Positions 25,192 to 50,279 of a stretch of 64,000 nt of DNA are shown in pieces; the first letter of the stretch is position 1; the number at the start of each line of letters is the position of its first letter. Source of the stretch: a virus (Duplodnaviria > Caudoviricetes). The stretch is from IMG/VR virus record IMGVR_UViG_3300032332_001510, positions 1 to 64,000 of that record. One strand, 5' to 3'. Position numbers and translations under genes: made by a program. The notes beneath the pieces were generated by a model. That model searched no databases. It saw nothing but the letters and a program-made list of their open reading frames with translations, and was not told the DNA's origin.

Positions 25192-25762
25192 GTTCTTTAC
25201 GCTTAGCCTCACAAAGTGTTTCTACACGATTGCTTACTTCTTCACTGTGTAACCACAAGTCTTTGTTTTCTAGCAAGCTGTCAATTTCCTTGCTAGTTAA
25301 AAAATCTTTGTAAATGTGTTGTAGGAATTGTCTAGACCACTCACGTTCAAAAACTGCTTGATCATAGATTTCACCACCCTTACCAAAGATTCCACCACTG
25401 TAGTTGTGAAACATAAATAAACTATGTGGAGTTACCTCAAACACATCGGCACATAAAAAGATCATTGTAGCAGCACTCATACAGCTGCCTTCAACACTAC
25501 ATACTACAGTAGCCGGTGTTTCAGCAAGTACGCGCATAAATTGTATTGCAGTGTTTAGGTCACCACCGCAACTATTGATATAAATTTTTACTACGTCTTG
25601 GTCACTAGCACTACGAATAGTATTAAACCATTCAATGTAATCCTCAGGACCAGTAATTAAACCACTTAAGTAAAATTCGTAAAGTGCACTAGTACATTTA
25701 CGAAACCCACGACTAATACCAGTGTCGAGGACAAAATCATCATCTGTTGCGTTTTTAGTCAT
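25157..25762 (-). CDS. clpP: ClpP-like serine protease
   Basis: YINSCGGD, GSCMSAA (Ser), MFHNYS (His), DLWL motifs. Confidence 0.85.
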   Translation of the reverse strand: MTKNATDDDFVLDTGISRGFRKCTSALYEFYLSGLITGPEDYIEWFNTIRSASDQDVVKIYINSCGGDLNTAIQFMRVLAETPATVVCSVEGSCMSAATMIFLCADVFEVTPHSLFMFHNYSGGIFGKGGEIYDQAVFEREWSRQFLQHIYKDFLTSKEIDSLLENKDLWLHSEEVSNRVETLCEAKRKEHDDSLSANLPN

Positions 25763-25774
25763 AGGAGTATTGTA

Positions 25775-25807
25775 TAAAAAAGCCCCCCTTGGTTACAAGG
25801 CGGGGGC
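25775..25807 (-). terminator. terminator at the 3' end of the tmRNA coding piece
   Basis: GCCCCCGCCTTGTAACCAAGGGGGGC-TTTTTT. Confidence 0.8.
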
Positions 25808-26075
25808 AGACCTCGGCACTAGCTTAAGCGGCTAGGGCAAATACCTCATCGTTGGCATTTATATAGTTTGCTTCTTTTGCGGAGATCGCCTACCGAGTTG
25901 TCCACTTGCATACTTATCACACTGTCGAAACCATGACTGGCCCATCAAAAGCACACCACACTTACAGAGGTAACACGTACCATGGCTATGCATCGCCTTA
26001 GTGTGCTTTTGGTGGACCAGGTGGGAGTCGAACCCACGTCCAGCGCGCCTTTCGGCTCGTTTCATACAACCATAT
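25780..26075 (-). ncRNA. ssrA: circularly permuted (two-piece) tmRNA: acceptor piece about 26075-26010, intervening segment 26009-25944, coding piece 25943 to about 25780
   Basis: T-arm GTGGGTTCGACTCCCAC then CTGGTCC-ACCA lies upstream of the GGGCCAG 5' end; stem has the G3-U70 Ala determinant; tag ORF 25856-25824 encodes ANDEVFALAA*. Confidence 0.93.
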
Positions 26076-26158
26076 AAAAATACTCTAGTTTGGATTCAAA
26101 CCTTGTCCTAGTATTGTCTACTTGCGTGTCTCACCACACCGACCAGAATATTTTTATA

Positions 26159-26232
26159 TGGTGCCCCTTGACAGAATCGAACTGCCAATTGATGATTACA
26201 AATCAACTGTTATACCATTTAACTAAAAGGGC
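26159..26232 (-). tRNA. tRNA-Thr(UGU)
   Basis: GCCCTTT...AAGGGGC-ACCA; anticodon loop TTTGTAA; GTTCGAT T-loop. Confidence 0.92.
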
Positions 26233-31922: not shown

Positions 31923-32014
31923 TGGCAGAGAGTGTGGGATTCGAACCCACGGTACACATCACTGCATACGACGGTTTAGCAAACCGCTGCCTTCGGCCAC
32001 TCAGCCAACTCTCT
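31923..32014 (-). tRNA. tRNA-Ser(GCU)
   Basis: AGAGAGT...ACTCTCT-GCCA; anticodon loop TTGCTAA; long variable arm. Confidence 0.95.
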
Positions 32015-45047: not shown

Positions 45048-45365
45048 TTGAAATATACTAAAGAAATTACTGACCGTTTAGTTGAACAATACAAAACAGG
45101 CACTCAAGTCCAAAAAATTGCGCAGGAGCTGGAGGTGCCGGAGCGTAGTGTAATTGCCAAGCTCAGCAGCTTGGGTGTTTACCAGAAAAAGCAGTACTTA
45201 AACAAACGCGGTGAAGTGCCTACAAAGAAGTCAGAGCACATAGAAAACATTGCTAAACTGCTCAAAATGGATGTAGAACTCCTAGAAAGTCTTGAAAAGG
45301 TCAATAAAGGTATCCTACAGGTCCTAGAAACCAAATTAAGTCACGAAAACTGTCAAAATCCATAA
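45048..45365 (+). CDS. A2-like HTH DNA-binding protein (paralogue 1)
   Basis: YT.E.T..L...Y..G......A..L....RSVIAKLS..GVY.KK.Y..K.GE pattern shared with three other ORFs. Confidence 0.7.
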   Translation: MKYTKEITDRLVEQYKTGTQVQKIAQELEVPERSVIAKLSSLGVYQKKQYLNKRGEVPTKKSEHIENIAKLLKMDVELLESLEKVNKGILQVLETKLSHENCQNP

Positions 45366-45461: not shown

Positions 45462-45490
45462 TTGACAACATTGATTTTACACTGTATAAT
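45462..45490 (+). promoter_or_regulatory. perfect-consensus sigma70 promoter with no downstream ORF
   Basis: TTGACA (45462) -17- TATAAT (45485), followed by TTGGCGC as in the repeat elements. Confidence 0.75.
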
Positions 45491-45556
45491 ATTGGCGCAG
45501 CAGACTTAGTCAAAAAACAGACTACCTATTAAAATAGACTTTGTACTTAAACAGAC

Positions 45557-45596
45557 TAGTGAGTAAAACTATACAGCTATATAGTTTTACTCACTA
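45557..45596. repeat. perfect 17-bp inverted repeat
   Basis: TAGTGAGTAAAACTATA-cagcta-TATAGTTTTACTCACTA. Confidence 0.95.
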
Positions 45597-45654: not shown

Positions 45655-46222
45655 CAAAACAAAACCCCGCTAAAGCCGTCGCCTTGCGGGGTTTTGAACT
45701 CTTACGAGTTTTTATGCGATATTGACTTAGTTTTCACAGAGATCGTCTGTTACGGTAACCTATCATTTCGCGGGGGAGTTTGCCATTATATGGTCTAGAA
45801 TGATATTTTGGCCAACTCGGTTCAGCCTATATTTTAACCAGCGGGCCTAACCGCTGGACAGCACTGCTCTAGTTGCACACCAGATTGAGGTTGCTTGGAT
45901 ACCGTCTAAGTTATTTACAAGTTCTAGACAACTTGGTAAGTTTGGGTATTTACAACCACCTGGGCTCCCAGAGGTAGCGAACCTTAGCAGTCCAGGATTT
46001 TAATTTTAGCTAAGGGCTGTGGCTCGGCTCTAACATAGATTCCCCACAATTAAGACGCTGCACCAAATGCGCGCCGCTGTCACCCATTCTTTCGACAGTC
46101 GTCAGTACTTGTACTTGGCACTACAGGTTGCTAGCTATACATTGGCTTGCTGGCGGGATAGTGGTACGTTGACTGGTATCTGCGCTTTGTCCTCTCGGAT
46201 AAGCTCTTTCCTAACTGTCTAT
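45655..46222 (-). ncRNA. candidate large structured non-coding RNA (about 560 nt)
   Basis: Own promoter (TTGAAA 46257 -17- TATAAT 46234) and terminator (45656-45695); no ORF of 60 aa or more on the - strand; many hairpins. Confidence 0.6.
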
Positions 46223-46282
46223 AATAATATTATACACTGTTGGGGAGAAGATTTCAAGACAAGATTTCTTCTCCCCGGTAGC

Positions 46283-46594
46283 TTAGGCCCCAAACTTCTC
46301 CACAAGCAGCTCCAGACCGCTCATGTTGCACTTCTCAAGGCTGGCAATTGCTTGAGGGTCAATATCAAACTTCGCTGCAATCTTGTTGATCAGGTCCATT
46401 TTAGTAACCCGGCCCTGACCCTTAGCCGCGGTTTTGGCCACATACACGCCTTCGCGTGAAAGCTTGGCCACAATCGACCGCACCGACTTGCCCATCTCTT
46501 CAGCAATCATTTCCACAGAATTGCCCGTGGTGTAAAGTCCGATAACGGTAGCGGTCTGCTCGGCGGTGTAGTTTACAGTTTTGTCAGTCATCAT
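46283..46594 (-). CDS. A2-like HTH DNA-binding protein (paralogue 2)
   Basis: KTVNYTAEQT...GKSVRSIVAKLSREGVY; T5 A2-like pattern. Confidence 0.75.
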   Translation of the reverse strand: MMTDKTVNYTAEQTATVIGLYTTGNSVEMIAEEMGKSVRSIVAKLSREGVYVAKTAAKGQGRVTKMDLINKIAAKFDIDPQAIASLEKCNMSGLELLVEKFGA

Positions 46595-47272: not shown

Positions 47273-47599
47273 TTAAATGGGTTTTGAATTTGCCAATGCG
47301 TCGAAAATTGCTTTTAGGGCAGATTTATTGCATTTGGTCAGGGATTCAATATCATTTTCTGGCAAACGCAGGATTGCGCCAATTGCATCAGCGTGCGCGT
47401 CTTTTTTAACGACCGGCTCGCCAGTTTTTGTTTTATAGGTTTTCTTTTCGTAAACCCCCTCGCGCGAGAGTTTAGCAACAATTGAGCGAACCGATTTGCC
47501 CATTTGAACGGCCAATTCTTCAACGGTAAAACCATTTTTGTAATCGGCAATCAGGTTAAGGGTTTGCTCAGGGGTATAGTTTACAGTCTTTTCAGCCAT
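47273..47599 (-). CDS. A2-like HTH DNA-binding protein (paralogue 3)
   Basis: Near-duplicate of 51794-52123. Confidence 0.8.
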   Translation of the reverse strand: MAEKTVNYTPEQTLNLIADYKNGFTVEELAVQMGKSVRSIVAKLSREGVYEKKTYKTKTGEPVVKKDAHADAIGAILRLPENDIESLTKCNKSALKAIFDALANSKPI

Positions 47600-49630: not shown

Positions 49631-50110
49631 TTAGTGTCCTTGTTTGCTTGGAATATATTCACCGCGAATATTGAAATAATCGCATACCGCTTTAAGATAT
49701 TGCACGTTATCCTCATAGAAAACAACGTCATCCATCATTGCCAAGTTAATATTAGCAGTTTGAAAGCATTTAATCAAACCGTTAATTTTTAGCGTTGAGC
49801 CAGATTGAAAATCGTCGCTAGTACGCGAGATAACATAATCAGGAACCCCTAGTACGTCACGCATAAATTGCCAATCTGGATCATTCATTACACGCGCAGT
49901 AGCGATAATCGTGTAACATTCAGCGTCCATGCAATCGCGTTTATATTTATCAGCCAATGGCAATAAGCCATCCAGCATTGCCAAGTGCTGATTATCTCGC
50001 CAAAAGCCAATATCAATGCGCTCACCTGCGTCGGTGAGAACAGTGCGATAACGGTGGCTTGAATCCACGATAGTGCCGTCCATGTCATAAATTGCTACTC
50101 GCTTAATCAT
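49631..50110 (-). CDS. HAD-family phosphatase (possible dmp-like nucleotidase)
   Basis: YDMDGT motif I, TAR motif II, YEDN motif IV. Confidence 0.8.
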   Translation of the reverse strand: MIKRVAIYDMDGTIVDSSHRYRTVLTDAGERIDIGFWRDNQHLAMLDGLLPLADKYKRDCMDAECYTIIATARVMNDPDWQFMRDVLGVPDYVISRTSDDFQSGSTLKINGLIKCFQTANINLAMMDDVVFYEDNVQYLKAVCDYFNIRGEYIPSKQGH

Positions 50111-50279
50111 TTTGTTTGCCTGCGTTGTGTCCATGTAGAGAATTATACACGAAAAATCGGGTTGTGCCAGGAAGTGCAAAAATACAACAGTAGGGGAAAC
50201 CCCTATTGACACGCCCCAAAATTATGTGGTATAATTTTGGCGCCGCAGGTGTTGTAAAAATACAACACCTGCCCGTTAT

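Follow-up and report, generated by a model that had tools for sequence, protein, structure and literature searches.

A probable modular non-coding RNA gene of an unclassified family in uncultured T5-related phages

What does a phage encode in a stretch of several hundred nucleotides that has a promoter and a terminator of its own and no sizeable gene between them? The question arises in the first 64 kb (64,000 nucleotides, hereafter the window) of a 77.6-kb IMG/VR virus record, which is estimated to be 73% complete and whose terminase is ~50% identical to Demerecviridae terminases, so that the label "T5-like" is a fair one. The first-pass annotation of the window had bracketed one such region on the minus strand; both of the signals it relied on are present, and both are conserved in homologues:

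46594-46283, minus strand: upstream small gene, with its stop codon at 46285-46283; the promoter begins 25 bases after this stop
46257-46229, minus strand: sigma-70-type promoter TTGAAA-17-TATAAT, near-consensus (11/12 matches)
near 46222, minus strand: candidate RNA start, placed from the promoter position
45695-45650, minus strand: intrinsic terminator, a 16-bp interrupted hairpin (45695-45656) followed by the U-run UUUUGUUUUG

The promoter and the first transcribed bases are kept in more than 30 related loci, as seen when the loci downstream of the upstream gene are aligned, and the terminator hairpin is kept in 12 homologues (helix 27 in the alignment described below, 100% paired, with a C-G to A-U exchange in three of them). 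A simple scanner had overlooked this terminator because its stem is long and interrupted. Between the two signals lie ~568 nt of the minus strand, whose longest open reading frames on that strand are 25 and 21 codons, and the annotation's statement that no minus-strand frame of 60 or more amino acids occurs there was thus borne out. With its own promoter, an intrinsic terminator and no conserved reading frame, the locus has the layout of an independent bacterial-type RNA gene. A 9-nt inverted repeat (GGGGAGAAG / CTTCTCCCC, 46276-46242, minus strand) encloses the promoter -35 box just past the upstream stop codon, and relatives carry another repeat, GGGTCAGA / TCTGACCC, at the equivalent place around the RNA promoter; such a repeat could be an operator or an attenuating hairpin.

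Herein we read the minus-strand segment 46222-45655 as probably a modular non-coding RNA gene of an unclassified family, carried by uncultured, mostly freshwater, T5-related phages and processed into tRNA-sized units. The RNA as a whole folds with an MFE z-score of -2.46, and none of 100 shuffles folds as well, while no single module has a significant MFE z-score. Metagenome pattern scans yielded 12 distinct near-full-length homologues, 78-83% identical to the window and alignable end-to-end (alignment A2). The structure of A2 is RNAalifold-based, with its module B part corrected with the wide family alignment; left at its defaults, RNAalifold joined the start of module B to a far segment. The structure comprises 141 pairs in 27 helices with 97.7% of cells paired. 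Both partners have changed at 22 of these pairs, where shuffles give 9.3 (0 of 500 reach the observed number) and slid-partner controls 1-5. The same was seen in all four of our alignments, where 0 of 500 shuffles reached the number of both-sided changes and the slid controls were far lower, as is found in a structured RNA family. The covariation that the first-pass annotation had named among the checks on its proposal is there, both in A2 and in module B (see below), and by these comparisons the RNA is a genuine structured non-coding RNA conserved along its whole length. The proposal itself, one large ornate RNA of ~560 nt, holds in so far as the RNA is real, structured and non-coding, but what it describes as one body consists of chained modules that are separate transcription units in most relatives.

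The seven stems that had been found by eye fared unequally. Three are among the supported helices, namely CCAGCGG/CCGCTGG, ACAGA/TCTGT and AACTC/GAGTT, all of which show compensatory changes in homologues, but the GNRA loop reported on the last is not conserved among them; the GAGUU/AACUC of the window also sits one column off the GGGUY/GACCC of its relatives, so that the tool scores the window as unpaired there. The remaining stems do not vary, belong to the window alone or lack support. CCTTAGC/GCTAAGG does occur but varies little, with a G.A mismatch in three sequences, and its loop (after module B) takes a ~65-nt insertion in six homologues, a tolerance expected of a hairpin loop. TATCATT/AATGATA with its enclosed CCAT/ATGG, as well as TGGG/CCCA, are specific to the window, and CTGTC/GACAG finds no support, its bases belonging to the closing helix of module A and to module B. 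The parts that replace this picture are:

46220-46093, minus strand: module A, ~128 nt, a closing 7-bp helix and inner helices
46219-46213 / 46100-46094, minus strand: closing helix of module A, GACAGUU / GACUGUC, with compensatory variation
46085-46014, minus strand: module B, 72 nt, a three-way junction with a pseudoknot
46085-46082 / 46017-46014, minus strand: P1 of module B, GGGU / GCCC
46081-46079 / 46056-46054, minus strand: P2 of module B, GAC / GUC, bearing a variable hairpin
46053-46049, minus strand: J2/3 of module B, junction strand UUAAU
46048-46044 / 46022-46018, minus strand: P3 of module B, UGUGG / CCACA
46076-46074 with 46027-46025, minus strand: 3-bp pseudoknot of module B, CGG (5' internal loop of P2) with CCG (loop 3)
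46013-45696, minus strand: domain C, ~318 nt with at least 15 helices (helices 12-26 of A2), window lineage only
45857-45838 and 45750-45736, minus strand: domain C helices CCAGCGG/CCGCUGG and ACAGA/UCUGU, respectively; AACUC/GAGUU is a further domain C helix

Module A varies in a compensatory manner both in its inner helices (2-6 of A2) and in its closing helix, where among 30 sequences the pair 2/142 is GC in 18, AU in six and GU in five, and the pair 8/136 is CG in 22, UG in six and UA in two. On a cross-clade MAFFT alignment RNAalifold returns the closing helix only, because the interior of the module aligns poorly. In distant relatives module A has its own promoter, and its 3' end, the closing stem plus a U-run, is terminator-like.

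Module B is the best-defined part of the RNA. All of its cells are paired (100%) across 39 sequences and 99.6% are paired across 65 distinct sequences; in the latter set both partners have changed at 12 of the 15 pairs, where shuffles give 4.2. Since the 65-sequence alignment was fitted to nested helices and the pseudoknot was absent from that model, the covariation of the pseudoknot is independent of the fit. Among the wider members P2 occurs as GUC/GAC, GGAC/GUUC, GAAC/GUUC, GGAA/UUCC and GUA/UAC, P3 as UGUAG/CUACA, UGUUG/CAACA, UGACA/UGUCA and AGCAG/CUGCU, and the pseudoknot as CAG/CUG and CGA/UCG. P1 is nearly invariant, with a single one-sided change (U.G to C-G, five sequences) and, as its sole both-sided change, G-C to U-A in one sequence of alignment A6, which was fitted to the model. 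The module ranges from 62 to 88 nt, its junction is recovered by single-sequence MFE folding, and its covariance model (R1) finds one copy in the window at 67.4 bits.

Pattern scans of IMG/VR added 61 module B loci; a loose scan gave mostly chance matches, only seven being real, and a second one yielded no further genuine copies. Among 51 loci of module B that were found by DNA pattern alone, 42 lie downstream of the same DNA-binding gene. When 185,579 species genomes were scanned for the exact pattern, one 2.9-kb contig from a Saccharibacteria MAG bin came up (68.9 bits with the covariance model), and since this short contig is the only one, the module is to be seen as a phage RNA. The model had no match in T5 or in Vibrio phage 234P1 (Demerecviridae).

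Domain C has an invariant core, CUUACCAAGUUGUCUAGAACUUGUAAAUAA, and several of its core helices never vary; nhmmer found the domain only in the 12 close homologues, and in distant relatives just the terminator-proximal 70 nt, weakly. As these 12 sequences are fairly close, shared ancestry could explain part of its covariation. A window-specific segment (~45740-45825) stands in place of a different hairpin in relatives, and within it lies a promoter-like site (TGGCCA-18-TATAAT, 10/12 matches, 45814-45785, minus strand) that could be the start of a shorter 3' RNA. One segment of domain C slightly resembles the module B paralogue described next, but it has neither P1 nor the pseudoknot and we did not call it a copy.

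How the parts belong together becomes clear from the relatives. The protein encoded upstream of the RNA has at least 591 relatives in IMG/VR (confirmed by tblastn), from which we took the best 80 loci, and ~43 of these 80 could be aligned as DNA downstream of the gene despite only ~50% protein identity. They show a conserved promoter and module A, mostly followed by a U-run and a second promoter, and then module B. In distant relatives the RNA island extends to ~1.1 kb. It opens with promoter 1 and module A, goes on with promoter 2 and module B, and then holds a large domain, a second copy of the junction fold (unit 2) and, in many cases, a tRNA-Glu(UUC); these are followed by a type I hammerhead, small hairpins that repeat, and a terminator resembling that of the window. 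The elements of these islands that the window lacks, along with tRNA-Glu, are:

L008:1884-1960 and 24 other loci (alignment A5): unit 2, a paralogue of module B
L012:5702-5803, L053:2529-2630 and 14 other loci: type I hammerheads, 16 distinct examples

Unit 2 matches module B in the order of its helices and in its junction motif, CUUAAU(U/G)G, and of its 19 pairs 16 covary; its pseudoknot, which occurs as GAG/CUC, AAG/CUU, AAC/GUU and AGG/CCU, is 100% paired, and a model built from module B alone detects it at 22-30 bits. The hammerheads, which often lie directly 3' of tRNA-Glu(UUC), have the full core; their stems I and II covary, stem III carries an insertion of ~60 nt, and they score below the Rfam thresholds. 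The order of the elements varies, with module B leading directly to the tRNA and then to unit 2 in locus L065. This variability speaks for A, B and unit 2 each being a functional unit of its own, and for a fusion of A and B in the window lineage through loss of the U-run and of promoter 2. Modules A and B are shown to be autonomous by the promoter that each has in most relatives. In the window lineage, where 7 nt (46092-46086) separate them and hold no promoter, the loss of both signals implies that A, B and C form one primary transcript.

Transcription of the locus has moderate support from RNA libraries. Contigs from four freshwater/lake metatranscriptome studies match relatives of positions 45726-46236, with summed contig depths, which give neither RNA ends, strand nor level and may include DNA contamination of the libraries, of up to 430, 17, 10 and 8 on this segment vs 0-7 on its flanks.

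Does the RNA belong to a known class? At gathering score, Rfam 15 matched nothing at the RNA locus and, elsewhere in the window, a tmRNA and five tRNAs:

25733-26129, minus strand: permuted two-piece tmRNA of betaproteobacterial type, tag ANDEVFALAA
23597-23831, 26159-26232 and 31923-32014: five tRNAs (Gln, Asn, Met, Thr, Ser)

With the limit relaxed to E ≤ 10, all that the segment 45300-46600 gave were short hits, far below threshold, in unrelated families such as miRNA precursors; no hit came from the models of ROOL, GOLLD, RNase P, tRNA, tmRNA, hammerhead and group I/II introns, and ARAGORN found no tRNA or tmRNA at the locus. The first-pass annotation, too, had found no hallmarks of RNase P, group I/II introns or tmRNA. 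Searches of 15 related loci (gathering score) and of the L008 island (E ≤ 1) returned tRNAs alone, with no GOLLD and no known ribozyme class model matching the RNA, and neither the RNA nor the island of one relative had a blastn match among 50,697 GenBank phage records. A scan of 45655-46222 for the hammerhead core (CUGANGA ... GAAA ... UH with three stems) found no match. The first-pass annotation had left the choice between a ROOL/GOLLD-type class and a new one; the lack of any Rfam match, which includes the ROOL and GOLLD models at E ≤ 10, decides for a new class. The RNA is a new family with a new small fold, within the phage-encoded structured RNAs near tRNA genes. It may be that module A or B is already among the unnamed candidates of a catalogue of 8495 structured RNAs of 29-151 nt drawn from the same IMG/VR collection, which comes without names, pseudoknots or multi-module context (Fremin and Bhatt 2023, PMC10690425).

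The closest known systems bear on whether the modules are units or domains. GOLLD (RF01998) is phage-encoded, large and helix-rich, lies by tRNA islands, sometimes with a tRNA inside, and is known from lake metagenomes, and ROOL (RF03087) is a phage/prophage RNA of ~600 nt with pseudoknots that is near tRNAs, abundant and without a known protein partner (PMC12286853). The RNA described here shares with GOLLD its phage origin, its wealth of helices and, in relatives, a tRNA-Glu within the island (the window's RNA locus has no tRNA, the nearest lying ~14 kb away), and with ROOL a comparable size class, a pseudoknot and, again in relatives, the proximity of tRNAs. It differs in that the GOLLD model rests on a conserved 3' half, whereas here conservation lies in the 5' modules and variation in the 3' domain, and in that most relatives have a promoter for each of the modules; ROOL comes from Firmicutes/rumen prophages, in contrast to the uncultured freshwater T5-like lytic phages considered here, and neither covariance model matches. 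One could nevertheless hold that the whole 570 nt (~1.1 kb in distant relatives) is a single GOLLD/ROOL-like architecture, possibly homo-oligomeric, with the modules as its domains. Helices throughout several hundred phage-encoded nucleotides would fit this, as would the tRNA inside the islands, which recalls the linker of some GOLLD RNAs (PMC12286853), a 13-bp stem that links module B to unit 2 across a ~140-nt domain in relatives, and the palindrome UCUAGA, which lies in an invariant loop and could make a kissing contact. We consider it unlikely, given that GOLLD and ROOL models stay without a match even at E ≤ 10, that in most relatives A and B are each preceded by a promoter and A ends in a terminator-like manner, that B, unit 2 and the tRNA change order and neighbours (as in L065), and that the 3' domain is unconserved between lineages.

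If the locus is instead the modular gene that we favour, a host-type RNA polymerase would read it from the sigma-70-type promoter, transcription would be strong and early, and the transcript would probably be abundant. A cut between A and B in the linker 46092-46086 would then yield stable, tRNA-sized particles. The 3' strand of P3 in module B runs straight into that of P1, so that both helices should stack, P1 on P3, with the pseudoknot predicted to tie the internal loop of P2 to loop 3; by analogy, stacking and pseudoknot together may shape the module into a compact L or Y, open to recognition by a protein or a processing enzyme. The tRNA elbow is formed by pairing of the D-loop with the T-loop. 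Module B resembles this elbow, and the tRNA-like domain of tmRNA, in that a terminal helix is stacked on a 3' hairpin and a long second arm is present, whose G-rich residues pair with the hairpin loop; it is also tRNA-sized and is arrayed with real tRNAs in relatives. The resemblance is one of shape only. Module B has a three-way rather than a four-way junction, a 4-bp terminal helix, no T-loop sequence and no CCA, and neither ARAGORN nor the Rfam tRNA model recognises it.

Such a fold could also be a device that frees its neighbours, and in this case module B (unit 2 in relatives) would be a new self-cleaving ribozyme or a tRNA-like RNase P signal, which here would release A from B. Its compact pseudoknotted fold with invariant junction nucleotides invites the idea, and so does its company, since hammerheads and tRNAs are settings in which other self-cleaving classes turned up. 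Hammerhead ribozymes have been reported from phage tRNA regions (PMC3088659); the relatives' islands carry type I hammerheads with a complete core, while the window RNA has none. In the window lineage only 7 nt and no promoter lie between A and B, and one 370-nt RNA-library contig starts exactly at the first G of module B (46085), a weak hint given that contig ends cannot show RNA ends. In most relatives, however, module B starts 2-15 nt past its own promoter, where cleavage is unneeded, and no known ribozyme model matches it, so that we judge this explanation improbable. The broader version, in which module B and unit 2 are a new catalytic or processing RNA class (a self-cleaving ribozyme or an RNase P-recruiting tRNA mimic) that, alongside hammerheads and tRNAs, punctuates the multi-RNA precursors of a large clade of uncultured T5-like phages, we likewise regard as rather improbable.

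The locus might also act as DNA, as an origin, iteron, operator or injection-stop-like region at which transcription is incidental or serves as primer only. TAGTCT arrays that repeat every 17 nt are found within and beside it, as are long palindromes, a dispersed motif, GACCCTAA, switches strand there, and it is flanked by paralogous DNA-binding proteins:

46283-46594 (minus strand), 47273-47599 (minus strand) and 45048-45365 (plus strand): three paralogous proteins of ~105 aa, PHROG DNA-binding families 1725 and 323

The first of these is the upstream protein, of DNA-binding type (phrog_1725/323); an "A2-like" label for it is unsupported, as it has no BLASTP similarity to T5 A2. A role as DNA is nonetheless very improbable, because the 22 compensatory positions and a pseudoknot that covaries over 65 sequences indicate selection on RNA pairing and not on duplex DNA, hairpins of variable length are inserted between invariant blocks, and RNA-library coverage is confined to the transcribed unit. 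That the region encodes a small protein, for which the first-pass annotation had named the 25-codon MGDSGAHL frame coinciding with module B, is scarcely credible: this frame is open in 9 of 12 close homologues, but across 39 sequences it is unconserved, with the distances that separate its conserved blocks falling in equal measure into all three classes modulo 3 and an in-frame stop in 23, which marks module B as non-coding, and neither frame nor start codon is conserved, the start codon being absent from many relatives and no Shine-Dalgarno sequence being visible.

What the modules of the favoured RNA gene might do is suggested by their surroundings. The company of tRNA-Glu, hammerheads, the phage tmRNA and a polynucleotide kinase favours a part in a tRNA- or translation-related takeover, or else a decoy for host RNA-targeting defences; by analogy either role is possible, and we put it forward tentatively. 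The kinase may be relevant to healing the ends left by ribozymes or nucleases:

49631-50212, minus strand: polynucleotide kinase homologue (phrog_415), 3.4 kb from the RNA locus

Large structured phage RNAs of the GOLLD and ROOL type are among the least understood abundant RNAs. With this locus comes another family, unrelated to these and carried by lytic T5-like phages, with comparative support that is unusually clear and a modular layout in which each part can be tested alone. Module B in particular is small, has a well-defined pseudoknot and recurs by ribozymes and tRNAs, which makes it a practical target for cleavage and RNase P assays, ligand screens and structure determination. If it were a decoy or a processing element, it would show how T5-like phages organise and deploy RNA at the start of infection.

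Several repeats accompany the locus. TAGTCT-core arrays occur on the strand of the RNA, in the window at 45514-45558, past the terminator, where a palindrome with 17-bp arms and a perfect plus-strand promoter (45462-45490) adjoin the array; in six close relatives the array lies inside the loop after module B (e.g., L003:5606-5661), and distant relatives such as L016 have two copies inside module A. The octamer GACCCTAA is present 19 times in the window against 1.1 expected, in coding and non-coding DNA. Up to 44.97 kb it is on the minus strand in 13 of 14 copies (the one on the plus strand is at 812), at 45.37-45.63 kb its orientation is mixed (45369 plus, 45436 minus, 45631 minus), and from 53.8 kb all copies are on the plus strand. 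Candidate roles include a nick site and a Chi-like site, among others; a nicking endonuclease is encoded beside the terminase in Demerecviridae relatives, and UUAGGGUC, the complement of GACCCTAA, is the cleavage-site strand of the relatives' hammerheads.
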